Program-made: the position numbers and the translations under genes | Assembly (NCBI GenBank): GCA_965204745.1 | Contig: OZ242010.1 | Span: forward strand, 3,264,001 to 3,328,000 | DNA: 64,000 nt | Direction: 5' to 3' | Origin: Candidatus Latescibacterota bacterium | GTDB taxonomy: Bacteria; Latescibacterota; UBA2968 | In this document: positions 9,669 to 49,832 of the stretch, in pieces | Position numbering within the stretch: the stretch's first letter is position 1 | Layout of the letters: the number at the start of each line of letters is the position of its first letter | The notes under the pieces: model-generated | The model's input: the letters and a program-made list of their open reading frames with translations, nothing else | Told to the model about the DNA's origin: nothing | Databases searched by the model: none

Positions 9669-9953
9669 ACACGGCTCGCCTTTCCCCGCTCGTGGCTTAA
9701 ACTTCCATCTTGCCTCTCGCCTCTTGCCTCTCACCTCTTGTATCTTACGTCCCTTCCTCTGCGGCGCGTTCAGCGGTGCAAACTGAACACATCGTTCACT
9801 TAACCGATAAATTCTCGTGTTGTATTTCACGGATGCAAGATCCACGCCAACCCTTCTTGCAATAGACGAAAAGAAAGGGTTGTAAAATCGGGGGCAGAGA
9901 TGTATGTTGTCGCTGGGCAGAATATTTGATCACATGCAACAAAGGAAGGCATT

Positions 9954-18500: not shown

Positions 18501-21500
18501 TACTCGCGCCGTGACCGTGTCCGGTGTGGCAAGCAACGATCAAGACGTGGGCAATGTGACCGGTGCGGCTTTGACGCTGGAAGACGATGATGCGCCCAAG
18601 ATGTACTGGATGGACGCTGACACGGATAAGATTCAGCGTGTCAACATTGATGGCTCCTACGTCGAAGACCTCATCACCACAGGATTGGATGGGCCATATA
18701 GCATCGCGCTGGATGTGGGGGGCGGCAAGATGTACTGGACGGACACTACCACGGATAAGATTCAGCGTGCCGACCTCGATGGCTCCAATGTCGAAGACCT
18801 CATCACCACAGGATTGGGTGATCCAAGTGGCATCGCGCTGGATGTGGGACGCGGAAAGATGTACTGGATGGACGCTAGCACGAATAAGATTCAGCGTGCC
18901 GACCTCAATGGCTCCAATGTCGAAGACCTCATCACCGCAGGATTGAGGTATTCAGGTGGCATCGCGCTGGATGTGGGGGGCGGAAAGATGTACTGGACGG
19001 ACAGGGCCGCGGCTAATATTCAGCGTGCCGACCTCGATGGCTCTAATGTCGAAGACCTCATCACCACAGGATTGGATGGGCCATTTGGCATCGCGCTGGA
19101 TGTGGGACGCGGAAAGATGTACTGGACGGACATTGTCACGGATAAGATTCAGCGTGCCGACCTCGATGGCTCCAATGTCGAAGACCTCATCACCACAGGA
19201 TTGGGTAATCCATTTGGCATCGCGCTGGATGTGGGACGCGGAAAGATGTACTGGACGGACAATGTCACGAATAAGATTCAGCGTGCCGACCTCGATGGCT
19301 CCAATGTCGAAGACCTCATCACCACAGGATTGACTACGCCAAATGGCATCGCGCTGGATAAACCGACGGTGACATTGGCACTGTCGCCCACGTCGATTTC
19401 TGAGGCTGGTGGTGTTGCGACGGTGAGCGCGAAGCTGTCGCATCTATCGAGGGATGCGACAACAATCACGGTGCGCCCCGTGACCGGTGCTTACACGGTG
19501 GGGTCGGATTCGACGATCACCATCGCGGCTGGGGACACGACGAACGCGTCGGACACGGTGGTCATCACGGCGGTGAACAACACGACCGATGCACCGGACA
19601 AGCGCTTAGGCGTGTCTGGAACGGTGGCAGGCGACGATGTGGCATCGCTGGCTTCCGGGACCCTGACGATCACAGACGATGAAGCCGCGCCTACCGTGAC
19701 GCTGATGCTGTCGCCCTCGTCCATCTCGGAGGCTGGCGGTGTTTCGACGGTGAGCGCGACGCTCTCGCGTCCGTCGAGTGAGGCGACCACGATCACGGTG
19801 CGCCCGGTGACCGGTGCTTACACAGTGGGTCAGGATTCGACGATTGCCATTGCAGCCGGGCAAACGGCGAACACGTCGGACACGGTGGTGGTCACGGCGG
19901 TGGACAACACACAAGACGAGGTTAATCGCGCCGTGACCGTGTCCGGTGTGGCGCGCAACGCCCAAGGCGCGGGCAGTGTGACCGGGGCGACTTTGACGCT
20001 AACCGATGATGACGCGACGCCGACGCTGAGTATTGCTTCTGCGAGTGTGGATGAGGGCGCCACTGGGGAGACGCCATCCCTTGAGTTCATCGTCTCGTTG
20101 AGCGCGGCGAGTGGGAAGGTAGTGACGGTGGGCTATGCAGACGCGACTAGCGGGACCGCGACTTCGGGCACGGACTACACCGCAATCACTGCCGGCACGC
20201 TGACGTTCGCGGCGGGTGTGACGCGCAATACCATTGCGGTGTCCGTCACCGGTGACAACACCGCCGAGCCGAATGAGACCGTGAGCGTGACGCTGAGCAA
20301 TCCTGTCAATGCGACCTTCACCGGCGGGAGCGCGACCCTCACCAGTAGCGGGACGATCACCGATGATGACACGACGCCGAGGCTGAGTATTAGTTCTCCG
20401 ACTGTGGCCGAGGGGAGCGGTTCCTCATCCCTTGAGTTCATCGTGACGTTGAGTGTAGCCAGTGGTCAGCAAGTCACGGTGGACTATGAGGACGCGGGCA
20501 CCGGTACCGCGACTTCGGGAGATGACTACACCGCAATCACTGCTGGCACGCTGACCTTAGCGGCTGGCGTGACGAGCGATACCCTTGCCGTGGGCGTTCT
20601 CGCCGATGCCCTCGATGAGGAGAATGAGACCGTGGTCGTCGAGTTGAGCAATCCTGTCAATGCGACGATCAACACGGCGACCGGCACCGGAACGATCACC
20701 GATGATGACGACGAGCCGACGTTGAGTATTGCTTCTGCGAGTGTGGCCGAGGGCACCACTGGCGCCACGCCGTCGCTTGAGTTCATCGTGACGTTGAGCG
20801 CGGCAAGTGGTCGGCAAGTGACGGTGGACTATGAAGACGCGGGCACCGGTACCGCGACTTCGGGCACGGACTACACCGCAATCACTGCTGGCACGCTGAC
20901 CTTAGCGGCTGGCGTGACGAGCGATACCCTTGCCGTGACTGTCCTCGGCGATGCCCTTGACGAGGATGATGAGACCGTGATCGTGACGCTGAGCAGTGCG
21001 AGCAATGCGGCGATAAGCACGGCGACCGGCACCGGAACGATCACCGATGATGACGCCCCGCCGACGTTGAGTATTGCTTCTGCGAGTGTGACCGAGGGTG
21101 ACGCTGGGGAGACGCCATCGCTTGAGTTCATCGTCTCGTTGAGCGCGGCGAGTGGGAAGGTAGTGACGGTGGGCTATGCGGACGCGACTAGCGGGACCGC
21201 GACTTCGGACACGGACTACACGGCAATCACTGCTGGCACGCTGACGTTCGCGTCAGGTGTGACGAGAGATACCCTTGCCGTGTCCGTCACCGGTGACGAC
21301 ACCGCTGAGTCGGATGAGACCGTGATCGTGACGCTGAGCAATCCGAGCAATGCGACCCTCAGCGGCGGGGGCACGACCCTCACCGGCACCGGGACGATCA
21401 CCAATGATGACGGCGTGCCGAGGCTGAGTATTAGTTCTCCGACTGTGGCCGAGGGGAGCGGTTCCTCATCCCTTGAGTTCATCGTGATGTTGAGTGTAGC

Positions 21501-32781: not shown

Positions 32782-32974
32782 GAGAATCTCCTTTGCTAAA
32801 GCCTGCGACTGAATAACACCCCTGCAACACAGGCCATGAATGCCTGTATCAGGGTACAAAATTCCTAAATGGTCGACCGCTTGGGGGACGGGGATTGGGA
32901 CTGACTACTGACTACTGACTACTGACTACTGACTACTGACTACTGACTACTGACTACTGACTACTGACTACTGA

Positions 32975-34122
32975 TACCAAATTGAATTTATCTTGTCCTA
33001 TTATTATCTTTTATTTTTTGTTGTTCTACCCTATTGTGCGGAGGTGTCCATGTGGATTGACTATCCCAATCAGATTACAGAAAGCCCGGAAGCCTTGCTC
33101 CGGGAAGAAAAACGCCTGAAAGCCACCCCAATGGCTGATCGCGTGCGTTTCTTGCGCTTGCTCAAAAGCGCGACCTATCCCACGCAAACCCAAGTCGCTG
33201 ATCTGTTGGGATACGATGTGCGCACATTGCGGCGTTGGTGGCGTTGCTACCGCACGGAGGGCCTGCCCGGTCTTCTGGCGCAGGCCAAAAAACGCGGGGC
33301 CAAAGAGCGGATCACGGCTTCAGCACGCACGGCGTTGCTGGCGGCGATGAAGCAGGGAGAGATCGCCACCATGGAAGAGGCCCGGCAACTGCTTCAGACG
33401 CAGTTTGGTGTGGTCTATCGCAGTGTGAGTAGCCTGTCCAAGTGGTGCCAACGCCATGGGATCAAACGCAAGACAGGACGGCCTGTGCATGTGAAAACGG
33501 ATGGGGATCGCCAAGAGACTCTTAAAAAAACTTCGCCACGCTCATAACTCATGCCAAAACCGGGCATTCGCCACGCCGCCGGCGTGTCTTTGCCTTTGAT
33601 GAAGCCCGTTTTGGCTTGAAAACATGGCATCGGCGGCGCGGGTGTCCAAGCGGGCATCGTCCGCCTTGGCCAGTGCAGATGCGCTATGACTGGCTCTGGC
33701 GCTATGCTGCGGTTGAACCGGCGACGGGGCACTGCGTCTGTTTGTCTCTGCCCGCGTTGAACCAGGAGTCTTTTCAATGCTTTATTGATCATCTTCAACG
33801 TCTGTATCCCGAAGATTTGGTGATCCTCGTCCAAGACAATGCCCGGGCCCATTGTCGCGCAAAGGTGCGTTGGTCAAAGCAGATGGCCCCCTTTTATCTG
33901 CCGCCTTATTCGCCTCAACTGAATCCTGTGGAACGTTGGTTTGAGGGCTTGCGCGGGGCCTTATCTAACCGAGTCTTTGAGACGAGGGCGGCGTTAGAGA
34001 CCGCGTTGAGCGATGTGTTGCAAGCCTTTCGCAATGCCCCAGACCGGTTGGCGCGTTTGACCGGCTTTGGCTGGTGGTTACAAGCACTCGAAACATGAGG
34101 ACAGATTAATTTCAATTTGGTA
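32975..34122 (+). mobile_element. IS630-family element, 1148 bp
   Basis: TIRs TACCAAATTGAA / TTCAATTTGGTA; flanked by TGA on both sides. Confidence 0.9.
33050..34098 (+). CDS. IS630 transposase, orfA/orfB joined by a programmed -1 frameshift
   Basis: HTH orfA; A7C slippery site at 33524-33531; orfB has FDEARFG, QDNA, LPPYSPQLNPVE. Confidence 0.88.
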
Positions 34123-34274
34123 TGACTACTGACTACTGACTACTGACTACTGACTACTGACTACTGACTACTGACTACTGACTACTGACTACTGACTACT
34201 GACTACTGACTACTTGAGCAATGGCGGGGTTGCCTCACCTCTCCCGTCTCCCCTCTTGTATCTTGGAAGTAAGG

Positions 34275-34450
34275 GTTAATTAGGAGTTGCGCCCTCGTAT
34301 CGAGATAAGCCATCTTGATGCCCGGCTCGGGGAAGGCCGGCCCCTCTTGAAGGCGATGACCTTGTAGGTAAGATAGGCCCCCCGACCACCGGGTCTATGC
34401 CGAAGAGTATCTAAGCCCCTTGAGGCTGCATATACAAGACCGGTAGACTT
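34275..34450 (+). ncRNA. Predicted IS110 bridge RNA
   Basis: Two stem-internal-loop modules. Guides CCCCTCT (34341-47) and AGGTAAG (34366-72) match the target; AGAGTATCT (34404-12) and ATACAAG (34432-38) match the donor junction. RNA ends are approximate. Confidence 0.75.
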
Positions 34451-34522
34451 GGCGTCAATGGTCGGGACGCGACCCCGAGCGCACACCAGACCCTTACAAC
34501 CCCCTCATCACAGGAGGCCCCC

Positions 34523-35530
34523 ATGTCGAAATCTCAACCCGCTTTTGCCGGCATTGATGTCAGTGCCCGCACGTTGTCCGTTGCCCTGTCCAGACCCGGA
34601 CAAGCTGTCATGCAAGCGACCTTTGCCAATGATCCCCAAGCCCATAAGCGGTTGCTGCAGTGGCTCACGAAGGGCGGGCACATGGTCTCTGTGTGCCTCG
34701 AAGCGACCGGGCTTTACAGTTTGGGGGTGGCCTTGGCCTTGCATCGGCATCGCCACACAAAGGTCATGGTCGTCAATCCCAAAGCGATGAGCAAGTACGC
34801 CCAAGCCTGCATGCAACGGGCGAAGACGGATGCGAAGGATGCGTTGTTGATCCTCGACTATGCCGAGCGCATGCCTTTTGTGCCTTGGCAAGCGCCGAGC
34901 GAGCAACGGCTTCAACTGCAAGCCCTCACCAGACGCATTGACCAACTCAAGCAGGAGATCATCCGCGAACAGAGCCGCAACCACGCGCAGAGCTACCACA
35001 TCCGCAGCACACGGCGCATCGCACGCGATATTCAGGTGAATATTCGACACTTCAAACGCCGCATTGCCTACTTGGAAAGCCAAGCCCTCGATCTCGTTTT
35101 GCACGATGAGCCCCTCAAGCGTGCCTACCAACGCCTCTGCTCGACGCCTGGCATCGCGCAAACGAGTGCCTTGCGGCTCTTGGCCGAGTTGACCCTTTTG
35201 CCAGAGGAGATGCAACCGCCCCAGTGGGTCGCACATGCAGGCCTGGATCCCAAACCCAAACAATCCGGAACCGCCAATCCACAAAGACGCATCTCGAAAA
35301 CCGGGAATAAGTACCTCCGCCATGCCCTCTATATGCCTGCCTGGGTGGCCAGCAGACACGAAGTCCATGTCAAAGCCTTCTATGACCAACTCATCGCCCG
35401 CGGCAAGAAACCTTTGCAGGCTATCGTTGCGGTGATGCGAAAGTTGCTCCATTCGATCTGGGGCATGTTGCGCCATGACCAAGATTTTGAGGGCGAAAAA
35501 TTCTATCGAATCACCCCGAAAACCCCTTGA
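34523..35530 (+). CDS. IS110 DEDD recombinase/transposase
   Basis: GIDVS, CLEATG, KTDAKDA, PGIA, AGLDP..QSG, GNKYLRHALY, AVMRKL. Confidence 0.95.
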   Translation: MSKSQPAFAGIDVSARTLSVALSRPGQAVMQATFANDPQAHKRLLQWLTKGGHMVSVCLEATGLYSLGVALALHRHRHTKVMVVNPKAMSKYAQACMQRAKTDAKDALLILDYAERMPFVPWQAPSEQRLQLQALTRRIDQLKQEIIREQSRNHAQSYHIRSTRRIARDIQVNIRHFKRRIAYLESQALDLVLHDEPLKRAYQRLCSTPGIAQTSALRLLAELTLLPEEMQPPQWVAHAGLDPKPKQSGTANPQRRISKTGNKYLRHALYMPAWVASRHEVHVKAFYDQLIARGKKPLQAIVAVMRKLLHSIWGMLRHDQDFEGEKFYRITPKTP

Positions 35531-35587
35531 CCTTTTAAGAGAGTATCTTACCTCTCACCGAAGGGGGTTGGGCGGGGTGGAAACTGC

Positions 35588-36613
35588 CTACTGACTCTCA
35601 AGCCATCGCAACTGATCCATTTCCGGAAACGGAACAATGCGATTTTCGAGCGGGCCAATACCTTCAAACGCCATGCACACGCGGTCGCCCTCGCGCAAAC
35701 CGGTCTCGAGATCGCGGTCGGAAAATACGATGGGCGTGCCCCAATAGAGAACTTGCAGGGTATCGGGTTTGAGGGGCAAGCGGGAAAAGAGCGAGCGTTC
35801 GAGGTGGAAGAGGCCGTCGGGCATGTTGAGGTGATCGCGCCCGGTGCGCCCTTCTTTGTGGGCGATGCACACCCCATTGCGAATCACCTTGCAAGAGACG
35901 GCCACACTGCGGTTGTCATAAGCCGAATCCGCGACCATCAACGGGCCTAAACTCGCGCAGCCATAAGACCAGTTTTTCGCCTGCGGCAAGTTGAGTGGGT
36001 TCTCGGCTTCGATGCCATTGTCCGTATAATCATTGCCCCCCGTGTACCCCAATCGCTCAATTTGACCTGTGGCGTTGAGCCCGTAAATGGTGACGAGTTC
36101 GGTTTCGGGCACCAGGCGGCGGGTGGTGTTCGGATATGAGATGCCGCCGCCGTGACCGACCAGAGCCGCGCTGTCGTTTTTGGCAAAGAGTTCGGGCATG
36201 CCGCCTTGCGCGCATTCTCGGTATTTTTGGTCGTACACATTGACGGTCTCGCCCGTGGCCTGCCTGGCCTCAATTTCGCGCAATTTCGCGCTGTCTTCAT
36301 GCGTGACGCCAGCCAGCCAAATCCGCAAGTTGTGCGGCGCGTCCCTCGGCGCCGTGACCGGGCTTATCAAGTGCGGTTGGTCAAAATCGCCCGCATTGTC
36401 CAACAAGTCGTCGAGCAGAAGGCGCGGCGCATCGCGGATATTGATCGCCTGCACGACAGACGCGATGCCATGTTCGCTCCCGCCGTGTCGATAATACAGG
36501 TCGTAAAGCGACGCCGGATGCGGAGCACGAGCCGTCAAGTCCAAAACATCGCGGCCCTCGACAAGCCCCAAGCGCGCACCGGTTCCGGGTTGTGCAAATT
36601 GCAAGAGTTTCAT
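35588..36613 (-). CDS. Fumarylacetoacetate hydrolase-family protein (keto-deoxy sugar acid dehydratase-like)
   Basis: WLAGVT, PELFAK, VPETEL, GYTGGND, IEAENPLNLPQAK. Confidence 0.8.
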   Translation of the reverse strand: MKLLQFAQPGTGARLGLVEGRDVLDLTARAPHPASLYDLYYRHGGSEHGIASVVQAINIRDAPRLLLDDLLDNAGDFDQPHLISPVTAPRDAPHNLRIWLAGVTHEDSAKLREIEARQATGETVNVYDQKYRECAQGGMPELFAKNDSAALVGHGGGISYPNTTRRLVPETELVTIYGLNATGQIERLGYTGGNDYTDNGIEAENPLNLPQAKNWSYGCASLGPLMVADSAYDNRSVAVSCKVIRNGVCIAHKEGRTGRDHLNMPDGLFHLERSLFSRLPLKPDTLQVLYWGTPIVFSDRDLETGLREGDRVCMAFEGIGPLENRIVPFPEMDQLRWLESQ

Positions 36614-36832
36614 AACTTGCCTCAGGAATAGGGGAATCAGTCGGAAAGACAAGAATAGGCACAATCGCCATCCGTGTAAAGCAGATTTTCGGGACGCGCT
36701 CTGCTCATCGCTGGCGAGCACGGGGGCATCGCCCCTACACACTGTTCGCCTTTGAACTAAACGCCCCTCTCCCCTATCCATTGCGGAGAGGGGATCATCG
36801 TTTTAAGACAACCTCGTAGGGAAATTGCGGTC

Positions 36833-38950
36833 ATGAAAAAAAGAAAACGCAGATCGACGGGCAAGACAGGTACGCCGGCTCGCCGCGAACCGCTTATGCT
36901 ACTTCCCGATCTACACGCGCTTCGCCTCAACCGCGACCTCGTCGGCATCGCGTTGCTCTTTGCCGGCGTGCTCGTCCTATACGCCGCCTCCACGCCGCGC
37001 ACCGTGATGTTAGAGGACGACGGCTTGTTCATCACCATCGCGACATTTGCCAGCGTTGGCCACCCGCCCGGCTATCCCCTGTACATCCTGCTCGGCCATC
37101 TCGCCTCGCTGTTGCCACTCGGCAGCGTCGCTTGGCGAGTGCATACCCTGAGCGGGCTGATGGGCGCGCTCACCTGCGCCTGCATCGCCTACCTCGTGTT
37201 GCGCCGCACCGGCAACCGGCCCGCCGCGTATTTGGCCGGCGCAGCACTCGCGGTCTCCGAGCATTTTTGGTCGCAGGCGATCATCGCCGATGTGTACACA
37301 ACCAACACCGCGGTGGTGTTCCTGACGCTGGCCCTCGTGCAAGAAGCGGCGGCGAATCGGAGTACGCGGCTGTGGATCGGCGCCGCGATAGTGTACGGCT
37401 TGGGCCTGGCTAATCACTATCCGCTACTGATCTTGTCTAGCCCCCTCTTTCTCGCCTACGCCATTGGGGCGGAAAGTCACCAAATCATCACCTCCAAGCA
37501 TCAGAATATCTACTTTCTCGCCAGGGATTTTTCTCGCCGCGTTCCCTACCTGCTTCCCATCGCGCTGCTCCCTGCGGCTGTCCTCTACGGCTGGATGGTG
37601 TGGCGTTCTCTCCAGCCATTGCCGGTCAATTTCTTAGGGCCCATTCAGTCGTGGGGCGCGTTCCTCACCTTCATCGACCGCAGCATCTACGGACATATCG
37701 ACCAGAACGTCAACGCCGACCTTTCCGACAAGTTGTTGTACGCCAAATATTTTGCGACGCAAGCACTGTTGCAATTTGGCATCGCGGGCGGCCTTGTCGC
37801 GCTGTGGGGCGCGTTCTCGCAGTATCGGACCGGCTGGCGTATCGGGCTTTTGTGCGAGACGCTCGCATTTGCCGCCAGCAGTTTCCTGCTCATCGCCATG
37901 CTCGGCTTCAACTACGAACCCCTCAGAATCTACACCTTCCGGCCGTATCCGCTGGTCGCGTACTGCATTTTCGCGCTCTGGATGGGCTATGGCATGCACG
38001 CATTGATGCGAGGCGTGCGCGATTGGCGCAAGCCGATGCTTCCGGCCATCTATGCCGCGTGCGCGCTCGGGGTGGCGGCCCTCGGCGTCTATAACGGAAA
38101 ACGCAACTATCGACCGCACGACCGGTTCGCAGCGGAGCAGGCGCAGGCAATGCTCGACATCGCCGAGAAGGATACCGCCTTTGTGCTTTACGCGGACCCG
38201 TATGTCGGCCCGATATCCTATCTTCACTATGTGGAAGGACAGCGTCCAAACCTCCGCCTGCTGGAGTATCACGGCTTGGTCTTCAGCGATAGGATCGTAC
38301 ATCCGTTGACGACGACCAACCAAAAGACCGCCGCGTGGGCCGAATTTCTTCGGAATGCGGATCAACCCGTGTATTCCCTGTGGTTCGGCCCGGCCTTTTC
38401 GGCGGCGGGCCTCGCGCATCTCGGCTTCTTTGTCGAAGTCAATAAGACCGTCGGATCGGGGCGAATCCAGATCAAGGGCAACGACAAGGCCAAAGAGTAC
38501 TTCGAGAAACTGATCGCGATGCCGGTGCCGAAGGACTGGCCGAACGCGGTCCATCGCAATGAAATGCTGAGAGGCTACGGAGAATATCTGGGTCTCGCAC
38601 AAGTGGATGAGCGGTCCGCGATGATCGATTACATCGCCGACATCCTGCCCTTGGCAAAAAGCAATTACTGGTCGCTGATGGGCATGGCCAAGGCGCTCGC
38701 GAGTCAAGGAGGCGACAGGCCCTTAGATCTGGCGGAAACCTACCTACAAAAAGCCGTGCAACTCGCGGGGGATGACCGCAACAAGGAGACCCGAGCAAAG
38801 GAATACTTCGTGGCCGGACAGATCGCACGGCGAAAGGGGAACGACAGCAGGGCGATAGCCTTGTTCCGCGAATCCTTGCGAATCGACAAGGCGCCATCCA
38901 ACCCATCCCATCAGGCACTCAAAGCGATGGGATTTCCCGGGCAGAAGTGA
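36833..38950 (+). CDS. DUF2723/TMEM260-like GT-C glycosyltransferase with TPR-like C-terminus
   Basis: EDDG.F, HPPGYPLY, WSQAIIADVY, GLANH motifs; many TM segments. Confidence 0.82.
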   Translation: MKKRKRRSTGKTGTPARREPLMLLPDLHALRLNRDLVGIALLFAGVLVLYAASTPRTVMLEDDGLFITIATFASVGHPPGYPLYILLGHLASLLPLGSVAWRVHTLSGLMGALTCACIAYLVLRRTGNRPAAYLAGAALAVSEHFWSQAIIADVYTTNTAVVFLTLALVQEAAANRSTRLWIGAAIVYGLGLANHYPLLILSSPLFLAYAIGAESHQIITSKHQNIYFLARDFSRRVPYLLPIALLPAAVLYGWMVWRSLQPLPVNFLGPIQSWGAFLTFIDRSIYGHIDQNVNADLSDKLLYAKYFATQALLQFGIAGGLVALWGAFSQYRTGWRIGLLCETLAFAASSFLLIAMLGFNYEPLRIYTFRPYPLVAYCIFALWMGYGMHALMRGVRDWRKPMLPAIYAACALGVAALGVYNGKRNYRPHDRFAAEQAQAMLDIAEKDTAFVLYADPYVGPISYLHYVEGQRPNLRLLEYHGLVFSDRIVHPLTTTNQKTAAWAEFLRNADQPVYSLWFGPAFSAAGLAHLGFFVEVNKTVGSGRIQIKGNDKAKEYFEKLIAMPVPKDWPNAVHRNEMLRGYGEYLGLAQVDERSAMIDYIADILPLAKSNYWSLMGMAKALASQGGDRPLDLAETYLQKAVQLAGDDRNKETRAKEYFVAGQIARRKGNDSRAIALFRESLRIDKAPSNPSHQALKAMGFPGQK

Positions 38951-40793: not shown

Positions 40794-40829
40794 CGGATAA
40801 ACGAGGTAAGAGGGGAGAGGCAAGAGGTA

Positions 40830-42122
40830 AGATACTCTCTTAAAAGGTCAAGGGGTTTTCGGGGTGATTCGATAGAATTTTTCGCCCTCAAAATCTTGGT
40901 CATGGCGCAACATGCCCCAGATCGAATGGAGCAACTTTCGCATCACCGCAACGATAGCCTGCAAAGGTTTCTTGCCGCGGGCGATGAGTTGGTCATAGAA
41001 GGCTTTGACATGGCCTTCGTGTCTGATGGCCACCCAGGCAGGCATATAGAGGGCATGGCGGAGGTACTTATTCCCGGTTTTCGAGATGCGTCTTTGTGGA
41101 TTGGCGGTTCCGGATTGTTTGGGTTTGGGATCCAGGCCTGCATGTGCGACCCACTGGGGCGGTTGCATCTCCTCTGGCAAAAGGGTCAACTCGGCCAAGA
41201 GCCGCAAGGCACTCGTTTGCGCGATGCCAGGCGTCGAGCAGAGGCGTTGGTAGGCACGCTTGAGGGGCTCATCGTGCAAAACGAGATCGAGGGCTTGGCT
41301 TTCCAAGTATGCAATCCGGCGTTTGAAGTGTCGAATATTCACCTGAATATCGCGTGCGATGAGACGTGTGCTGCGGATGTGGTAGCTCTGCGCGTGGTTG
41401 CGGCTCTGTTCGCGGATGATCTCCTGCTTGAGTTGGTCAATGCGTCTGGTGAGGGCTTGCAGTTGAAGCCGTTGCTCGCTCGGCGCTTGCCAAGGCACAA
41501 AAGGCATGCGCTCGGCATAGTCGAGGATCAACAACGCATCCTTCGCATCCGTCTTCGCCCGTTGCATGCAGGCTTGGGCGTACTTGCTCATCGCTTTGGG
41601 ATTGACGACCATGACCTTTGTGTGGCGATGCCGATGCAAGGCCAAGGCCACCCCCAAACTGTAAAGCCCGGTCGCTTCGAGGCACACAGAGACCATGTGC
41701 CCGCCCTTCGTGAGCCACTTCAGCAACCGCTTATGCGCTTGGGGATCATTGGCAAAGGTCGCTTGCATGACAGCTTGTCCGGGTCTGGACAGGGCAACGG
41801 ACAACGTGCGGGCACTGACATCAATGCCGGCAAAAGCGGGGTGAGATTTCGACATGGGGGCCTCCTGTGATGAGGGGGTTGTAAGGGATCTGGTGCGCGC
41901 TCGGGGTCGCGTCCCGACCATTGACGCCAAGTCTACCGGTCTTGTATATGCAGCCTCAAGGGGCTTAGATACTCTTCGGCATAGACCCGGCGGTCGGGGG
42001 GCCTATCTTACCTACAAGGTCATCGCCTTCAAGAGGGGCCGGCCTTCCCCGAGCCGGGCATCAAGATGGCTTATCTCGATACGAGGGCGCAACTCCTAAT
42101 TAACCCTTACTTCCAAGATACA
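40830..42122 (-). mobile_element. IS110-family element, copy 2, inverted relative to copy 1
   Basis: Same ends, same flank CCCCTCT|...|TACCTCT, and identical guide segments at ~41941-42038. Confidence 0.9.
40848..41855 (-). CDS. IS110 DEDD recombinase/transposase
   Basis: 335 aa; five amino-acid differences from copy 1. Confidence 0.95.
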   Translation of the reverse strand: MSKSHPAFAGIDVSARTLSVALSRPGQAVMQATFANDPQAHKRLLKWLTKGGHMVSVCLEATGLYSLGVALALHRHRHTKVMVVNPKAMSKYAQACMQRAKTDAKDALLILDYAERMPFVPWQAPSEQRLQLQALTRRIDQLKQEIIREQSRNHAQSYHIRSTRLIARDIQVNIRHFKRRIAYLESQALDLVLHDEPLKRAYQRLCSTPGIAQTSALRLLAELTLLPEEMQPPQWVAHAGLDPKPKQSGTANPQRRISKTGNKYLRHALYMPAWVAIRHEGHVKAFYDQLIARGKKPLQAIVAVMRKLLHSIWGMLRHDQDFEGEKFYRITPKTP

Positions 42123-42342
42123 AGAGGGGAGAGGGCTTGCGAGGAGGACATGCACAGGGGCCTATCCCTACGGTTGATGGCGACGGGGTGTGCGAAGGAC
42201 ATAGCGGGAGAACGATGAAGCGGCTGTAGGGTTGTGGGGGTAATCCGCGCAATCTGTGTAATCCGTTTAATCCGCGATTCAGACACGGCGGGGACGAGAC
42301 GGGCACGCACGGGTGGTTGGGCAGAGCGGCTGGGAATATCCC

Positions 42343-42372
42343 TTGACATCATTATCAGGCAGGCTGTATATT
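42343..42372 (+). promoter_or_regulatory. Sigma70-type promoter of the giant surface protein
   Basis: TTGACA-N18-TATATT, followed by an AAGGAG RBS and ATG at 42438. Confidence 0.55.
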
Positions 42373-42437
42373 GCTTCTCGTCAAGCCATCCTCTATTCGT
42401 GAGCTGGACACCTACCCCCAACGCAAAGGAGAGAATC

Positions 42438-45400
42438 ATGCATAACCGGATTTTTTCAACAGGCTTGTTGATGACCGCGCTCACAGCGCTGGTCTTTCTG
42501 AGCTATCGGGTCGTTGCCGAACCCGATGCCCAAGGCGGCGCGACGGCTGGGGGATCTTCCCCTTCCGAAAGCCCGTCCTCGAGTGATATGCTCACCACGA
42601 CAAACCGGATCTCGTTTAACGTTCCTACGACTTCCACGGCCGATTTTGATGCCGATGGGATGGTAGGCTTTTCCGACTTCTTGGCGTTTGCAGGGCAGTA
42701 TGGCACGCGACAAGGGGATGGCAGATACCAAGCGAAGTATGATTTGGATAGCGATGGTGCGATAGACTTGCAGGATTTTCTGAGTTTTGCCGGCAGTTAT
42801 GGCAACACAGTACCTCCTCCACCTCCTAGTGGTGGCGGTACGCCCAAGATGTACTGGAGGGACAATGTCACGGATAAGATTCAGCGTGCCAACCTCGATG
42901 GCTCCAATGTCGAAGACCTCATCACCACAGGATTGAGGAATCCACGGGGCATCGCGCTAGATGTGGGACGCGGAAAGATGTACTGGACGGACAGGGACAC
43001 GGATAAGATTCAGCGTGCCAACCTCGATGGCTCCAATGTCGAAGACCTCATCACCACAGGATTGAGGAATCCACGGGGCATCGCGCTGGATGTGGGACGC
43101 GGAAAGATGTACTGGACGGACTGGGACACGGATAAGATTCAGCGTGCCAACCTCGATGGCTCCAATGTCGAAGACCTCATCACCACAGGATTGAGGGGGC
43201 CAGAGGGCATCGCGCTGGATGTGGGACGCGGAAAGATGTACTGGACGGACTATGGCACGGATAAGATTCAGCGTGCCAACCTCGATGGCTCCCAGGTTGA
43301 AGACCTCATCACCACAGGATTGAGCAATCCATCTGGCATCGCGCTAGATATGGGACGCGGAAAGATGTACTGGACGGACTATGGCACGGATAAGATTCAG
43401 CGTGCCAACCTCGATGGCTCCCAGGTTGAAGACCTCATCACCACAGGATTGAGCAATCCATCTAGCATCGCGCTGGATGTGGGACGCGGAAAGATGTACT
43501 GGACGGACTGGGACACGGATAAGATTCAGCGTGCCAACCTCGATGGCTCCCAGGTCGAAGACCTCATCACCACAGGATTGAGGACGCCAGGTGGCATCGC
43601 GCTGGATACTCAGGGAACCGGTAGTGCCGGTAGTGGCAGTGGTGGGGGTAGCAGTGGTCCTGACCTGATCGTTGAATCGCCTTCGGTCAGCGATAGCACC
43701 TTGACGCCTGGGCAATCCTTCACCCTGCACGCCACAGTTCGCAACCGGGGCACGGCTCGGTCAGCCTCGACGACCTTGCGCTACTACCGCTCGTCCGACG
43801 CGACGATCTCCACGAGCGATACAGAAGTGGGCACGGATTCGGTCAGCGGTCTGTCCGCTTCGGGCACGGGTTCGGAATCGATCAGTCTGACTGCTCCGTC
43901 GAGTACCGGCACGTATTACTACGGCGCGTGCGTGGCAAGCGTCAGCGACGAGAGCAACACCGACAACAACTGCTCGGCTGCCGTCGTGCGCGTCACGGTG
44001 AGTAGCGGTGGCGGTACGCCCAAGATGTACTGGACAGACTGGGGCACGGATAAGATTCAGTGTGCCAACTTGGATGGCTCCAATGTCGAAGACCTCATCA
44101 CCACAGGATTGACTACGCCAGTTGGCATCGTGCTGGATGTGGTACGCGGAAAGATGTACTGGACAGACTGGGGCACGGATAAGATTCAGCGTGCCAACTT
44201 GAATGGCTCCTATGTCGAAGACCTCATCACCACAGGATTGAGGGGGCCACGGGGCATCGCGCTAGATATGGGACGCGGAAAGATGTACTGGACGGACTCT
44301 GGCACGGATAAGATTCAGCGTGCCAACCTCGATGGCTCCAATGTCGAAGACCTCATCACCACAGGATTGAGTTATCCATATGGCATCGCGCTAGATGTGG
44401 GACGCGGAAAGATGTACTGGACGGACAGGGAAACGGATAAGATTCAGCGTGCCAACTTGGATGGCTCCAATGTCGAAGACCTCATCACCACAGGATTGAG
44501 CAATCCATCTGGCATCGCGCTGGATGTGGGACGCGGAAAGATGTACTGGACGGACAATGGCACGGATAAGATTCAGCGTGCCAACCTCGATGGCTCCAAT
44601 GTCGAAGACCTCATCACCACAGGATTGAGGAATCCACAGGGCCTCGCGCTGGATGTGGGCCGCGGAAAGATGTACTGGACGGACCCTGACACGGAGAAGA
44701 TTCAGCGTGCCAACCTCGATGGCTCCAATGTCGAAGACCTCATCACCACAGGATTGAGGAATCCACAGGGCCTCGCGCTGGATACTCAGGGAACCGGTAG
44801 TGCCGGTAGTGGCAGTGGTGGGGGTAGCAGTGGTCCTGACCTGATCGTTGAATCGCCTTCGGTCAGCGATAGCACCTTGACGCCTGGGCAATCCTTCACC
44901 CTGCACGCCACAGTTCGCAACCGGGGCACGGCTCGGTCAGCCTCGACGACCTTGCGCTACTACCGCTCGTCCGACGCGACGATCTCCACGAGCGATACAG
45001 AAGTGGGCACAGATTCGGTCAGCGGTCTGTCCGCTTCGGGCACGGGTTCGGAATCGATCAGTCTGACTGCTCCGTCGAGTACCGGCACGTATTACTACGG
45101 CGCGTGCGTGGCAAGCGTCAGCGACGAGAGCAACACCGACAACAACTGCTCGGCTGCCGTCGTGCGCGTCACGGTGAGTAGCGGTGGCGGTGGCGGTACG
45201 CCCAAGATGTACTGGGTGGACCCTGGCACGGATAAGATTCAATATGCCAACTTGGATGGCTCCAATGTCGAAGACCTCATCACCACAGGATTGAGGGGGC
45301 CATTGGGCATCGCGCTGGATGTGGGACGCGGAAAGATGTACTGGACGGACTGGCGCACGAATAAGATTCAGCGTGCCAACTTGGATGGCTCCAATGTCGA

Positions 45401-48400
45401 AGACCTCATCACCACAGGATTGAGTTCGCCAGAAGGCATCGCGCTAGATGGACGCGGAAAGATGTACTGGACGGACTCTGGCACGGATAAGATTCAGCGT
45501 GCCAACTTGAATGGCTCCTATGTCGAAGACCTCATCACCACAGGATTGAGTTATCCACAGGGCATCGCGCTAGATATGGGACGCGGAAAGATGTACTGGA
45601 CGGACCCTGTCACGGATAAGATTCAGCGTGCCAACCTCGATGGCTCCAATGTCGAAGACCTCATCACCACAGGATTGAGGTCGGCATCAGGCATCGCGCT
45701 AGATGTGGGACGCGGAAAGATGTACTGGACGGACTCTGGCACGCCTGGGTACCAGGGCACGAAGAAGATTCAGCGTGCCAACTTGGATGGCTCCAATGTC
45801 GAAGACCTCATCACCACAGGATTGTGGGGGCCAGAGGGCATCGCGCTGGATGTGGGCCGCGGAAAGATGTACTGGACGGACCCTGGCACGGATAAGATTC
45901 AGCGTGCCAACCTCGATGGCTCCAATGTCGAAGACCTCATCACCACAGGATTGAGTGTGCCATTGGGCATCGCGCTGGATACTCAGGGAACCGGTAGTGC
46001 CGGTAGCGGCAGTGGTGGGGGTAGCAGTGGTCCTGACCTGATCGTTGAATCGCCTTCGGTCAGCGATAGCACCTTGACGCCTGGGCCATCCTTCACCTTA
46101 CAAGTCACCGTTCGCAATCGGGGCACGGGGCAATCAGCCTCGACGACCTTGCGCTACTACCGCTCGTCCGACGCGACGATCTCCACGAGCGATACAGAAG
46201 TGGGCACAGATTCGGTCAGCGGTCTGTCCGCTTCGGGCACGGGTTCGGAATCGATCAGTCTAACTGCTCCGTCGAGTACCGGCACGTATTACTACGGCGC
46301 GTGCGTGGCAAGCGTCAGCGGCGAGAGCAACACCGACAACAACTGCTCGGCTGCCGTGCGCGTCACGGTCAGTGGTAGCGGTAGCGGCGGTGGCGGCACA
46401 CCTACTAAGATGTACTGGATATCCGGTACCAAGATTCAGCGGGCCAACCTCGATGGGTCCGAGGTCGAAGACCTCATCACCACAGGATTGAGGAATCCAC
46501 GGGGCATCGCGCTGGATGTGGGACGCGGAAAGATGTACTGGACGGACTGGGACACGGATAAGATTCAGCGTGCCAACCTCGATGGCTCCAATGTCGAAGA
46601 CCTCATCACCACAGGATTGAGGGGGCCAGAGGGCATCGCGCTGGATGTGGGACGCGGAAAGATGTACTGGACAGAGAACCTCGGAGCCACCGACAGGATT
46701 CGGAGGGCGAACCTTGATGGGTCCGAGGTCGAAGTCGTCGTGAAACCAGGAGGCGGAGGTCCGGTCGCGCTGGGGCTAGGAAAGATATACTGGGCGACCC
46801 GTAGTAGTATTCAGCGGGCCAATCTCGATGGCTCCGAGGTCGAAGACCTCATCACCACAGGATTGAGGGGGTCACGGGGCATCGCGCTGGATGTGGGGCG
46901 AGGAAAGATATACTGGAAGGACAATTCTTACCCGTATAAGATTCAGCGGGCCAACCTCGATGGGTCCGAGGTTGAAGACCTCATCACAGGATCGGGGTAT
47001 GGAGGAGGCATCGCGCTGGATGTGGGGCGAGGAAAGATATACTGGACGAACGGCAGAAGTAAGATTCAGCGGGCCAACCTCGATGGGTCCGAGGTCGAAG
47101 ACCTCATCACAGGATTGGATGCTCCAAACGGCATCGCGCTGGACGGTCTTGCTGTTAGCGAGGGTGCTGGTCTCGACCTGATCGTTGGCTCGCCTGAGGT
47201 CAGCGACAGCCTACTGGCGCCTGGGCAATCCTTCTCCCTGCGCGCAAGAGTTCGCAACAGCAGCCCGGTATGGTCCGCCGCAACGACCTTGCGCTACTAC
47301 CGCTCAACGGACGCGACAATCTCCACCAGCGATACACCCGTCGGCACGAACGAGGTGGGCGAGCTGTCGGCTTGGGGCACGAGTTTGGAAGCGATCGATC
47401 TGACGGCCCCGTCAAATACCGGCACGTATTACTACGGCGCGTGTGTCGAAAGCGTCAGCGGCGAGAGCAAGACCAATAACAACTGCTCGGATGCCGTGCG
47501 CGTTACGGTGAGTAGCGGTGGTGGTGGCGGTGGCGGCACACCTAATAAGATGTACTGGATATCCGGTACCAAGATTCAGCGGGCCAACCTCGATGGGTCC
47601 TATATCGAAGACCTCATCACCGGAGGGGAGTGGCCAAGAGGCCTCGCGCTGGATGTGGGGCGAGGAAAGATATACTGGACGATCTCTAGTAGTATTCAGC
47701 GGGCCAACCTCAATGGGTCCGAGGTCGAAGACCTCATCACAGGATCGGGGTATAAAGGAGGCCTCGCGCTGGATGTGGGGCGAGGAAAGATATACTGGAA
47801 GGACAATTCTTACCCGTATAAGATTCAGCGGGCCAACCTCGATGGGTCCGAGGTTGAAGACCTCATCACAGGATCGGGGTCTGAAGGAGGCCTCGCGCTG
47901 GATGTGGGGCTAGGAAAGATGTACTGGACGACCCGTAGTAGGATTCAGCGGGCCAATCTCGATGGCTCCGAGGTCGAAGACCTCATCACCAGATTGGCCG
48001 ACCTAGGAGGCATCGCGCTGGATGTGGGGCGAGGAAAGATGTACTGGAAGGGCAATTCTTACCCGTATAAGATTCAGCGGGCCAACCTCGATGGGTCCGA
48101 GGTCGAAGACCTCATCACAGGATCGGGGTCTGAAGGAGGCCTCGCGCTGGATGTGGGGCTAGGAAAGATGTACTGGACGACCCGTAGTAGGATTCAGCGG
48201 GCCAATCTCGATGGCTCCGAGGTCGAAGACCTCATCACCAGATTGGCCGACCTAGGAGGCATCGCGCTGGCACTGGACGATCTTGCTGTCAGCGAGGCCA
48301 CTGGTTTCGACTTAGTCGTTGAATCGCCTTCGGTCAGCGACAGCCTACTGACGCCTGGGCAATCCTTCTCCCTGCGCGCAAGAGTTCGCAACAGCAGCAC

Positions 48401-49832
48401 GATACGGTCCGCCGCAACGACCTTGCGCTACTACCGCTCAACGGACGCGACAATCTCCACCAGCGATACACCCGTCGGCACGGACGAGGTCGGCGCGCTG
48501 TCGGCACGGGGCATGAGCCGGGAATCGATCACTTTGACTGCCCCGTCAAATACCGGCACGTATTACTACGGCGCGTGTGTCGAAAGCGTCAGCGGCGAGA
48601 GCAATACCAATAACAACTGCTCAACCAGCGTACGCATCACGGTGAGTAGGTTCGACCTGATCGTTGAATCGCCTTCGGTCAGCGACAGCCTACTGGCGTT
48701 CGGGCAATCCTTCACCCTGCGCGCCACAGTTCGCAACCGTAGCACGATACGGTCCGCCGCAACGACCTTGCGCTACTATCGCTCAACGGACGCGACAATC
48801 TCCACCAGCGATACATCCGTCGGCACGGACGCGGTGGGCGAGTTGTCAGCTTCGGGCACGAGTTCGGAATCGATCACTTTGACTGCCCCGTCAAATACCG
48901 GCACGTATTACTACGGCGCGTGTGTCGAAAGCGTCAGCGGCGAGAGCAATACCAATAACAACTGCTCAACCAGCATACGCGTCATGGTGCGCGCTGGTTT
49001 CGACTTGGTCGTTGGCTCGCCTGAGGTCAGCGACAGCCTACTGACGTTAGGGCAATCCTTCACCCTGAGCACCACAGTTCGCAACCGCAGCACGATACGG
49101 TCCGCCGCAACGACCTTGCGCTACTACCGCTCAACGGACGCGAGGATCGACACCAGCGATACATCCGTCGGCACGGACGCGGTGGGCGAGTTGTCAGCTT
49201 CGGGCACGAGTTCGGAATCGATCACTCTGACTCCGTTAAATATGGGAGACTACTACTATGGGGCCTGTGTCGAAGAAGCTACGTGGGAGAGCGATTCCCA
49301 GAACAACTGCTCGGATGGAGTGCACGTCTCCGTGGGATTGGTCATAGCCCCGGGCGCGAGAAAACAATACATAGCGAAGTTTCCTGCCAATTTTTCTTAT
49401 CAGCCTTCTTTTGAGACTATCTCGTATCGCGTCGTGTCGTCAGCCGTGGACTCTGGCTTATTAGGTGTGTCAAATGTTGATGTTAGCATAACTTGGCGCG
49501 ACCAGTTTGGAGTTGTTCGCTCAGTAACTGAAGTGAGATTTACTTACAATCTGTCCGTACGCTCATCAACACCCTTAAATACTACGCTACGGGCTAGAAT
49601 GACTTATAAGATAGTCTCGGCGATAGTCGGGAGCGAGGAGTTCACCTCCGGTGCTGTGGCGACTTATACTGTTCCATTAACGATTTTTGTTAGGGACAGC
49701 GGTAGTGCCAAGTTGACCGCCGGAGACGCGGAGTCGGCGACGCCAGTCCAAGAGCAAGACCGTTTGCCCCCGTCATCAGCACGGATCAACCTAAAACGCT
49801 CTATCGAGCAACCTAGAAATCCCTCACCATAA
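42438..49832 (+). CDS. Giant secreted protein: dockerin/EF-hand-like domain, 5 six-bladed YWTD propellers, 7 CARDB-like Ig domains, unique C-terminus
   Basis: Signal peptide; ADFDADGMVGFSDFLAFA; 30 (M/I)YW repeats in blocks of 6; DL.VESPSVSDS...YYYGACV...NNCS modules. Confidence 0.9.
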   Translation: MHNRIFSTGLLMTALTALVFLSYRVVAEPDAQGGATAGGSSPSESPSSSDMLTTTNRISFNVPTTSTADFDADGMVGFSDFLAFAGQYGTRQGDGRYQAKYDLDSDGAIDLQDFLSFAGSYGNTVPPPPPSGGGTPKMYWRDNVTDKIQRANLDGSNVEDLITTGLRNPRGIALDVGRGKMYWTDRDTDKIQRANLDGSNVEDLITTGLRNPRGIALDVGRGKMYWTDWDTDKIQRANLDGSNVEDLITTGLRGPEGIALDVGRGKMYWTDYGTDKIQRANLDGSQVEDLITTGLSNPSGIALDMGRGKMYWTDYGTDKIQRANLDGSQVEDLITTGLSNPSSIALDVGRGKMYWTDWDTDKIQRANLDGSQVEDLITTGLRTPGGIALDTQGTGSAGSGSGGGSSGPDLIVESPSVSDSTLTPGQSFTLHATVRNRGTARSASTTLRYYRSSDATISTSDTEVGTDSVSGLSASGTGSESISLTAPSSTGTYYYGACVASVSDESNTDNNCSAAVVRVTVSSGGGTPKMYWTDWGTDKIQCANLDGSNVEDLITTGLTTPVGIVLDVVRGKMYWTDWGTDKIQRANLNGSYVEDLITTGLRGPRGIALDMGRGKMYWTDSGTDKIQRANLDGSNVEDLITTGLSYPYGIALDVGRGKMYWTDRETDKIQRANLDGSNVEDLITTGLSNPSGIALDVGRGKMYWTDNGTDKIQRANLDGSNVEDLITTGLRNPQGLALDVGRGKMYWTDPDTEKIQRANLDGSNVEDLITTGLRNPQGLALDTQGTGSAGSGSGGGSSGPDLIVESPSVSDSTLTPGQSFTLHATVRNRGTARSASTTLRYYRSSDATISTSDTEVGTDSVSGLSASGTGSESISLTAPSSTGTYYYGACVASVSDESNTDNNCSAAVVRVTVSSGGGGGTPKMYWVDPGTDKIQYANLDGSNVEDLITTGLRGPLGIALDVGRGKMYWTDWRTNKIQRANLDGSNVEDLITTGLSSPEGIALDGRGKMYWTDSGTDKIQRANLNGSYVEDLITTGLSYPQGIALDMGRGKMYWTDPVTDKIQRANLDGSNVEDLITTGLRSASGIALDVGRGKMYWTDSGTPGYQGTKKIQRANLDGSNVEDLITTGLWGPEGIALDVGRGKMYWTDPGTDKIQRANLDGSNVEDLITTGLSVPLGIALDTQGTGSAGSGSGGGSSGPDLIVESPSVSDSTLTPGPSFTLQVTVRNRGTGQSASTTLRYYRSSDATISTSDTEVGTDSVSGLSASGTGSESISLTAPSSTGTYYYGACVASVSGESNTDNNCSAAVRVTVSGSGSGGGGTPTKMYWISGTKIQRANLDGSEVEDLITTGLRNPRGIALDVGRGKMYWTDWDTDKIQRANLDGSNVEDLITTGLRGPEGIALDVGRGKMYWTENLGATDRIRRANLDGSEVEVVVKPGGGGPVALGLGKIYWATRSSIQRANLDGSEVEDLITTGLRGSRGIALDVGRGKIYWKDNSYPYKIQRANLDGSEVEDLITGSGYGGGIALDVGRGKIYWTNGRSKIQRANLDGSEVEDLITGLDAPNGIALDGLAVSEGAGLDLIVGSPEVSDSLLAPGQSFSLRARVRNSSPVWSAATTLRYYRSTDATISTSDTPVGTNEVGELSAWGTSLEAIDLTAPSNTGTYYYGACVESVSGESKTNNNCSDAVRVTVSSGGGGGGGTPNKMYWISGTKIQRANLDGSYIEDLITGGEWPRGLALDVGRGKIYWTISSSIQRANLNGSEVEDLITGSGYKGGLALDVGRGKIYWKDNSYPYKIQRANLDGSEVEDLITGSGSEGGLALDVGLGKMYWTTRSRIQRANLDGSEVEDLITRLADLGGIALDVGRGKMYWKGNSYPYKIQRANLDGSEVEDLITGSGSEGGLALDVGLGKMYWTTRSRIQRANLDGSEVEDLITRLADLGGIALALDDLAVSEATGFDLVVESPSVSDSLLTPGQSFSLRARVRNSSTIRSAATTLRYYRSTDATISTSDTPVGTDEVGALSARGMSRESITLTAPSNTGTYYYGACVESVSGESNTNNNCSTSVRITVSRFDLIVESPSVSDSLLAFGQSFTLRATVRNRSTIRSAATTLRYYRSTDATISTSDTSVGTDAVGELSASGTSSESITLTAPSNTGTYYYGACVESVSGESNTNNNCSTSIRVMVRAGFDLVVGSPEVSDSLLTLGQSFTLSTTVRNRSTIRSAATTLRYYRSTDARIDTSDTSVGTDAVGELSASGTSSESITLTPLNMGDYYYGACVEEATWESDSQNNCSDGVHVSVGLVIAPGARKQYIAKFPANFSYQPSFETISYRVVSSAVDSGLLGVSNVDVSITWRDQFGVVRSVTEVRFTYNLSVRSSTPLNTTLRARMTYKIVSAIVGSEEFTSGAVATYTVPLTIFVRDSGSAKLTAGDAESATPVQEQDRLPPSSARINLKRSIEQPRNPSP

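Follow-up and report, generated by a model that had tools for sequence, protein, structure and literature searches.

The 64,000-nucleotide stretch of DNA analysed here (the window; positions 3,264,001 to 3,328,000 of contig OZ242010.1, GenBank assembly GCA_965204745.1, from a Candidatus Latescibacterota bacterium) contains two copies, A and B, of an insertion sequence (IS) of the IS110 family, both embedded in a heptamer tandem repeat of the form (NNCCTCT)n. This element is very probably of the IS621/ISCro4 type and moves by bridge-RNA-guided recombination into the junctions between repeat units. The evidence lies in the family and catalytic residues of its protein, a conserved RNA fold, matches of guide segments both to the flanks and to the ends of the element, the covariation of guides with flanks, and the pattern of insertion across the 5.48 Mb genome under study (G000, one contig). 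Window coordinates are used throughout, and those of the features are collected in Table 1.

The product of the single gene matches PF01548 (DEDD_Tnp_IS110) in its N-terminal part and PF02371 (Transposase_20) in its C-terminal part (Pfam; E 8e-25 and 1.2e-19, both above the gathering cut-offs), and scores 212 bits against the NCBIfam model NF033542, 'IS110 family RNA-guided transposase' (cut-off 140). Its best match in the PDB is ISCro4 (9t56; E 1.3e-39, residues 7-326 against 9-323), and IS621 aligns with it from end to end (E 1.2e-36, 129.9 bits). In the latter alignment Asp12, Glu60, Asp103, Asp106 and Ser248-Gly249 stand opposite IS621 residues Asp11, Glu60, Asp102, Asp105 and Ser241-Gly242 (the PDB chain numbering of IS621 is offset by +2); these DEDD and serine residues form the composite active site of IS621 (Hiraizumi et al. 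2024, PMC11208158). Judged by its sequence, the protein is an IS110-family RNA-guided transposase, a homologue of IS621 and ISCro4 with all five catalytic residues in place.

Homology between copies A and B spans the left CT core to the right CT core. Outside the element the two copies have in common only TCTCCCCT on the left, before the CT, and TACCTCT on the right, and both were found in CCCCT-CT-TACCTCT where the preliminary description had placed them. Inverted repeats are absent at the IS ends (TGTATCTTGG... and ...AGAGAGTATCT). The left end, upstream of the gene, holds four guide motifs in the order first described: a left target guide (LTG), which equals the left target plus core (34250-56); a right target guide (RTG), the reverse complement of core plus right target (35547-53); and left and right donor guides (LDG and RDG), which correspond to the two ends of the element itself. 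The target guides of this element match over 5+2(+1) positions on the left and 2+5 on the right. When the 266-nt left end was shuffled 200,000 times no shuffle held all four motifs and 0.07% held at least two; the product of the single-motif frequencies is about 1.6e-9.

An alignment of 25 distinct left ends from four genomes (eight from the genome under study, six from G016, ten from G018 and one from G036) gave an RNAalifold consensus in which each pair of guides lies in an internal loop around a small hairpin, with the target loop 5' and the donor loop 3'. The hairpins AAGG/CCTT and AGCC/GGCT and the closing stems of the preliminary description are all present in this consensus. Scored over 42 named pairs, with guide-guide pairs excluded, 97.6% of cells are paired, compared with 24-46% when the partners are slid by one to three columns. 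Compensatory changes occur at eight pairs (at one of them GC in 13 sequences and AU in 10), and none of 500 shuffles reached the observed values. The stems of the target loop are invariant and so provide no evidence for or against themselves. A Gemmatimonadota relative with 48% protein identity has the same layout, as read by eye. Direct alignment recovered the RNA in all the relatives retrieved. A search of window positions 33000-37000 against Rfam 15 (4227 models, E <= 1) gave no match; no bridge-RNA model was found there, so this search is uninformative on class membership. As predicted from the aligned relatives, the left-end RNA has the two-loop layout of a bridge RNA, and the compensatory changes among them support it.

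Handshake guides of IS621 pair with position 7 (and 6) of the other DNA partner (PMC11208158). The AU that follows the RTG here complements donor A6 and T7 (35545-46), so that both bases fit; of the AC in the donor loop, the A pairs with target T7 and the C does not pair with C6. In G016 a G occupies the position of that A, and the targets there end in C.

Across the genome there are 52 full-length copies and about 25 partial ones. The CT core is present at both junctions in 52/52 full-length copies, and 49 of the 52 lie in runs of at least three contiguous heptamer units (loose unit NN[CT][CGT]T[CT]T, within 30 nt on each side of the copy). By identity they fall into 37 at >=98.7%, nine at 96.2%, one at 94.7% and five at about 89%; the 37 near-identical copies argue for a recent burst. 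Forty-five copies carry the main guide class, CCCCUCU/AGGUAAG, and sit at CCCCT-CT-T[A/G]CCT. The flank counts for these 45 are C41, C41, C45, C44 and T44 at positions -5 to -1, and T43, A25/G18, C45, C42 and T44 at +1 to +5; the guide base opposite +2 is U, so that G gives an rU:dG wobble. Their exact sites are CCCCT-CT-TACCT in 20, CCCCT-CT-TGCCT in 17, TACCT-CT-TACCT in four, CCCCT-CT-CCCGT in two and another single-mismatch site in two.

Full-length copies fill 20 of 25 perfect sites (CCCCTCTTACCT) but only 17 of 82 wobble sites (CCCCTCTTGCCT; Fisher p = 1.2e-7). Five perfect and 65 wobble 12-mers remain empty, and third-order Markov simulation gives one for both together. As CCCCTCT and TACCTCT are minority units in the arrays, the element recognises one particular unit-to-unit junction.

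Guides and flanks also change together. The genome under study holds four guide classes. In the four copies with guides CGCCUCU/AAGUAAG, the left flank is CGCCT in 3/4 and the right flank TACTT in 3/4, both sides agreeing in 2/4; the exceptions are a CACCT that would form an rG:dT wobble and a TACCT. The single copy with guides UCCCUCU(C)/AGGUGAG (UCCCUCUC/AGGUGAG) lies in TCCCT-CT-CACCT, which its guides match exactly, down to the additional base that follows the core; this base of the LTG therefore behaves as part of the guide rather than of a stem. One of the two copies with guides UGCCUCU/AAGUAAG fits with a single G:T wobble. The 18 copies in G018 (76-78% protein identity) have guides UCGCCUCU/AGGGAG and flanks T[CT][GA]CCT-CT-CCCGT, the RTG pairing with only the core and three bases. 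Among the six copies in G016, five have the guide AGAAAAG, with the right flank CT-TTTCT in four of those five, and the sixth has AGGAAAG with CT-TTTCT, which would be a G:T wobble. In G036 (three copies, 53% identity) the guide GACGUUAG goes with CT-AACGT in 3/3. Mean Watson-Crick matches out of nine, for the own guide class against the best foreign one, are 8.27 and 6.53, 7.06 and 5.50, 8.50 and 7.50, and 9 and 7. Between the v7 and v2 subfamilies, three of 39 differences fall in the 15 target-guide positions, and an enrichment of substitutions in the guides is suggestive only. In G036 (L027-L029), two of the three copies read AT rather than CT at the left junction, and the left donor guide there is ...GUAUCC where the right end reads ...GTATCT; this reflects either a non-canonical use of the core or misjudged boundaries.

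Several observations weigh against guided insertion as described here. Within the main class the left target TACCT of four copies has two mismatches to the guide, the right target CCCGT of two copies has three, and two copies have one other mismatch; copy 602781, whose guides are UGCCUCU/AAGUAAG, departs from them at three positions and agrees better with another class. Only 5+2(+1) bases of the LTG are effective, against 7+2 in IS621, and flank positions -8 to -6 are conserved (T41, C39 and T42 of 45) without a matching guide base, which could be explained by the array context or by an extra layer of recognition. The minimum-energy fold of the naked RNA pairs parts of the guides (UCUUG with UAAGA, GUAU with AUAC), at -63.9 kcal/mol compared with -53.6 kcal/mol when the guides are held open, and the folding z-score of the whole left end is only -2.05. 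Some guide-guide pairing is unavoidable in a bridge RNA, since the two guides of one loop cover the core on opposite strands, and because the naked RNA prefers such pairing the case was rested on covariation rather than on the fold of a single sequence. The initial proposal that the guides lie in loops and not in stems therefore holds for the consensus of 25 left ends and fails for the naked single-sequence fold. At the predicted circle junction the spacer is 18 nt here and 17 nt in G016, G018 and G036; the junction sequence AGTATCTTGTAT has 0 matches in the assembly, and the contigs of the sequencing runs cannot show rare circles; and transcription, the RNA ends and the junction promoter are predicted only.

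Were the left-end matches to have no guide function, sites might be chosen by the protein, or by DNA microhomology between the IS ends and the repeats. The predicted status of the RNA, the conservation at -8 to -6 that no guide base accounts for and the partial self-pairing of the guides would all sit comfortably with such a scheme. We nevertheless consider it highly improbable. The IS ends (TGTAT... and ...GAGTAT) are unlike the target, and the matching segments are found 85-180 nt into the element, as parts of a fold for which compensatory changes speak. Changes in the guides track changes in the flanks in three minor classes of this genome and in three other genomes, and the homologues IS621 and ISCro4 are experimentally RNA-guided (PMC11208160 and PMC11208158).

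Common flanks might also result from copying of the IS together with its surroundings, by segmental duplication or recombination between arrays, rather than from site-specific insertion. The near identity of 37 copies, the recombination-prone nature of the arrays and the two CCCGT right flanks that the guide leaves unexplained could be accommodated in this way, but other features make it very unlikely. Outside the array units, the 52 copies show no relationship to each other in their 30-nt flanks, and they differ in how many units surround them and in what order; the junction always falls exactly at the CT core; and perfect-match sites are far more often occupied than wobble sites. In addition, a contig from one sequencing run (X1), 98.5% identical to the right flank of copy A over 476 nt, passes from 34253 to 35546, skipping 1292 nt and joining that flank to an array lacking the IS. 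Its joint has four ambiguous bases, as expected with a shared core. This contig is an IS-free allele of a related strain, a conclusion given moderate weight because the left anchor is only 28 nt. Other contig joints that skip about 1292-1307 nt were rejected as empty sites: in most of them the short sides of 21-35 nt lie in heptamer repeats and may derive from other arrays.

Tandem Repeats Finder located (NNCCTCT) arrays in the window at 9708, 11599, 14572, 14664, 22992, 31547, 34234 and 40803, and such repeats are frequent here, as first described. With 49 of the 52 copies in runs of units, the view that they serve as the landing site of the element also stands. Genome-wide there are 229 strict arrays of at least three units, against 0 in simulation, and 542 loose arrays of at least four units, with 3669 units in all. 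The commonest units are TGCCTCT (684), CACCTCT (435), CCCGTCT (321), TACCTCT (266) and CCCCTCT (259). Across 41 genomes of the order, the four-unit pattern occurs 528 times in the genome under study, 219 times in G018 and 0-1 times in each of the other 39. G018 belongs to the same genus and is the only other genome with a related IS aimed at these arrays; in G016 a related IS is present, the arrays are absent and the guides point elsewhere. The four-unit pattern is strand-biased (157 forward, 371 reverse), and the IS copies follow it (18 on the plus and 34 on the minus strand).

The restriction of abundant four-unit arrays to two genomes, each with an IS that targets them, might indicate that the element made the arrays, as footprints or through amplification driven by the recombinase, and did not find them as a pre-existing host repeat. 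There is very little likelihood of this, given that the loose arrays and their units far outnumber the 52 copies, that most units (TGCCTCT, CACCTCT and CCCGTCT) are not matched by the guides, and that IS110 insertion and excision are scarless according to PMC11208160. Moreover, an unrelated repeat, (ACTGACT)n, is common in this genome (218 matches to a three-unit pattern), is present in eight other genomes of the same genus and absent from G018, and has no link to this IS. The heptamer microsatellites therefore look like a host trait of the genus, with the IS following whichever family is locally abundant. One correction applies to the window: the perfect (CTGACTA)13 array immediately left of copy A (34123-34214) belongs to a different heptamer family and is not the target. 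Further (ACTGACT)n arrays lie at 2003, 22951, 25593 and 32900, beside that at 34123.

The preliminary description had also called the arrays a 'safe harbour'. Both window copies are intergenic, copy A neighbouring an IS630-like element and an FAA-hydrolase gene, and copy B a TPR/PMT_2 gene and a giant LDL-receptor-B-repeat gene, which accords with the term as far as it goes. For the whole genome there is a rough comparison of open reading frame (ORF) spans: the longest stop-free frame has a median of 207 aa at array midpoints and 458 aa at random positions, and reaches at least 200 aa in 51% and 86%, respectively. This points to intergenic arrays but is not decisive, since CT-rich arrays without stop codons bias it, and the term, itself an inference, was overstated.

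For transcription, the circular intermediate, RNA-protein binding and the chemistry of strand exchange we follow IS621. By homology with that element, the IS would be excised as a circle. Joining of its ends would place TTGACC and TATCTT 18 nt apart (16+2, as counted from the sequence and as first proposed), forming a putative sigma-70 promoter; the same boxes are found in G016, G018 and G036, with TTGACC or TTGAAC in the relatives. Transcription from this promoter would first yield a bridge RNA of about 160-220 nt from the left end and then the mRNA of the recombinase. The donor-binding loop (AGAGUAUCU/AUACAAG) would pair with the circle junction AGAGTAT-CT-TGTAT, and recombination at the common CT core would insert the element exactly where, in a (NNCCTCT)n array, a CCCCTCT unit meets a T[A/G]CCTCT unit. 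A consensus promoter scan of integrated copy A found none. A promoter supplied by the flank of integrated copies was rejected, as a TTG-type hexamer lies 16-18 nt upstream of TATCTT in only 5/51 and the scan of copy A gave none; contig joints that 'go back' were likewise discarded as evidence of circles, their positions being G-rich boxes that flank arrays and not IS ends.

The earlier assignment to the IS621-type architecture is supported by protein homology, the conserved fold and guide-flank covariation. According to the accounts of IS621 from Escherichia coli (Durrant et al. 2024, PMC11208160; Hiraizumi et al. 2024, PMC11208158), that element has a two-domain recombinase, which aligns with ours over its full length, and the five catalytic residues. 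It likewise has a non-coding RNA that precedes the gene in the left end and carries the target loop first and the donor loop second; a CT core; sense LTG and LDG and antisense RTG and RDG, all including the core; an LDG of nine nt; and, as predicted for the present element, an AU handshake after the RTG and a -35 box in the right end with a -10 box in the left end. It also favours a repeated sequence between genes as its target and accepts a wobble pair there. The present element differs in its distant protein (identity roughly in the high 30s per cent, read off the alignment and not computed) and in its target, a unit junction of a non-palindromic 7-bp tandem repeat and not a repetitive extragenic palindromic (REP) sequence. 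It differs further in its LTG of 5+2 bases plus one after the core where IS621 has 7+2, in its RTG of seven nt where IS621 has four (extendable to seven), in an extra outer stem around both loops, and in having 52 copies, divided among four guide classes, within a single genome. A preprint reports copy-and-paste behaviour and half-match insertions for IS621, which would be in keeping with the large number of copies found here and with the few sites that match by half.

ISCro4, compared by protein only, is the best PDB match and shows the same differences as IS621. It is reportedly named as a bridge recombinase in a 2025 bioRxiv preprint. The IS1111-group elements have seekRNA-guided DEDD transposases of the same superfamily, with the guide RNA downstream of the transposase gene; unlike in that group, the guide RNA here lies upstream of the gene, as in the IS110 group. 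ISPpu9 and ISPpu10 of Pseudomonas putida are said to be many-copy IS110-family elements, all located in one intergenic repeat family. The present element resembles them in being a multicopy IS110 element in one such family, and differs in that their targets are of the REP type. For ISPpu10 a target stem-loop is reported to be an added specificity determinant (bioRxiv 10.64898/2026.03.19.712850); unlike that target, the CT-rich heptamer, as read from its sequence, cannot form such a stem-loop on its own strand.

Further observations concern the copies and their surroundings. Partial matches to the IS include left-end-only pieces of 60-880 nt that retain the CCCCTCT-TGTAT junction, and there are 63 left junctions compared with 52 full copies. 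At G000:C1:1121591-1124181 two copies of different subfamilies (99% and 96%) stand head to tail with only CT-TACCT-CT between them. Sequencing runs that contain the IS include sponge and marine metagenomes; no RNA run is among those listed, a result that does not bear on expression. A G-rich box, ACCGAAGGGGGTTGGGCGGGG, often follows the arrays (35556-35582 in the window), its 8-mers coming after about 40-57 of the 542 arrays, and similar boxes are found ahead of some arrays, so that the arrays may belong to a larger repeat of composite structure between genes. In G018, arrays in the flanks downstream of L036, L042 and L043 contain short isolated stubs, CTTGTATCTT, which correspond to the opening bases of the IS left end. 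At L036 and L043 the stubs are followed by a hairpin-type repeat, cggacaggcacggg..., while L042 continues differently; the full form (...gggggcctgtccctacg) is found in the upstream flank of L047. These stubs may have been left by truncated copies or may represent a different mobile repeat.

The IS630-like element next to copy A (32900-34214) has a helix-turn-helix ORF (32993-33547) and a DDE_3 ORF (33616-34098), the gene apparently being split. Its ends are TACCAAATTGAA...TTCAATTTGGTA, and it is embedded in a perfect (ACTGACT)n array, of which 10.7 units lie to its left and 13 to its right. It was considered as a second array-targeting family and set aside, as it occurs as a single copy in the genome and no pattern can be claimed. 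At 15648-19359 and 42234-49832 the window holds very large ORFs with 129-bp (43-aa) LDL-receptor class B/YWTD-type repeats and CARDB domains, a eukaryote-like repeat protein content, and at 51138-51273 a perfect 12-bp tandem repeat (GAGCAGGGAATC) of 11.3 units.

Table 1. Positions of the insertion sequence, its predicted RNA parts and its target sites in the window
Feature	Position	Strand	Description
IS110-family element, copy A	34257..35548	+	1292 bp, counted with one CT core; from alignment with copy B and 52 full-length genomic copies
Copy B of the same IS	40830..42122	-	1293 bp; coding sequence 40848-41855; majority 99% subfamily
Left flank, copy A	34234..34256	+	End of degenerate heptamer array (Tandem Repeats Finder, period 7); left target CCCCT 34250-54, core CT 34255-56
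Left end, copy A	34257..34264	+	Right donor TGTAT 34257-61; -10-like TATCTT 34259-64; kept in G016, G018 and G036
Candidate bridge-RNA core	34325..34480	+	Outer stem GCUCGGG/CCGAGC (34325-31 with 34468 and 34475-80) encloses both loops; RNAalifold consensus
Putative target-binding loop	34335..34379	+	Stem GGCC/GGCC 34335-38/34376-79; hairpin AAGG/CCUU 34350-53/34360-63
LTG CCCCUCU	34341-47	+	Plus U 34348, matching the first right-target base
RTG AGGUAAG	34366-72	+	Followed by putative handshake AU 34373-74
Putative donor-binding loop	34381..34466	+	Stems 34381-86/34461-66, 34388-95/34446-53 and 34398-402/34441-45; hairpin AGCC/GGCU 34414-17/34424-27
LDG AGAGUAUCU (DNA AGAGTATCT)	34404-12	+	Identical to right end 35540-48, 9/9
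RDG AUACAAG	34432-38	+	Reverse complement of 34255-61, 7/7; followed by putative handshake A 34439
Recombinase gene	34523..35530	+	335 aa; DEDD RuvC-like domain and Tnp domain; sole gene of the element
Right end, copy A	35527..35548	+	-35-like TTGACC 35527-32 overlaps stop codon TGA 35528-30; left donor AGAGTAT 35540-46, core CT 35547-48
Right flank, copy A	35549..35559	+	Right target TACCT 35549-53, then heptamer units
Array context of copy B		-	...CCCTCTCCCCT-CT / TACCTCTTGCCTCT...
Unoccupied perfect target CCCCTCTTACCT	40804..40815	-	In the array of copy B, 15 bp past its right end; one of five empty perfect sites genome-wide

It is clear that the mechanism is a known one and not new, and that what is new is the unusual class of target, a microsatellite rather than a REP sequence. 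The mechanism being published, and the preference of IS110 elements for genomic repeats already known, the preliminary description overstated the importance of the element. According to Durrant et al. (PMC11208160), genomic repeats such as REP are frequent targets of IS110 elements, and guides and targets covary across orthologues. Literature searches on IS110 or bridge RNA with tandem repeats or microsatellites, and on Latescibacter or sponge transposases, found neither a microsatellite-targeting bridge-RNA IS nor these repeats, although the natural-target tables of Durrant et al. may hold such cases. The finding extends the known natural IS110 targets from REP-type palindromes to a non-palindromic microsatellite, which suggests that this orthologue needs no target hairpin for efficient natural spread. 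With 52 copies, four guide classes, far higher occupancy of perfect than of wobble sites and few tolerated mismatches, the genome offers a natural experiment in how a bridge RNA is programmed. That 37 copies are nearly identical suggests recent activity of the recombinase/RNA pair, which comes from a little-studied candidate phylum and could be tried as a further orthologue for programmable recombination.

More speculatively, and with considerable doubt on our part, the IS and the microsatellite may form a coupled system. Slippage-prone arrays would then offer a renewable landing pad, lineages would retune a few guide bases to claim other junctions, the supply of perfect junctions (20/25 filled) would limit copy number, and the recombinase might drive inversions and deletions between arrays. 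If this were true, the more than 100 guide-matched sites spread over the chromosome would turn the microsatellite of these symbiont-like Latescibacterota into a grid for rearrangement across the whole genome.

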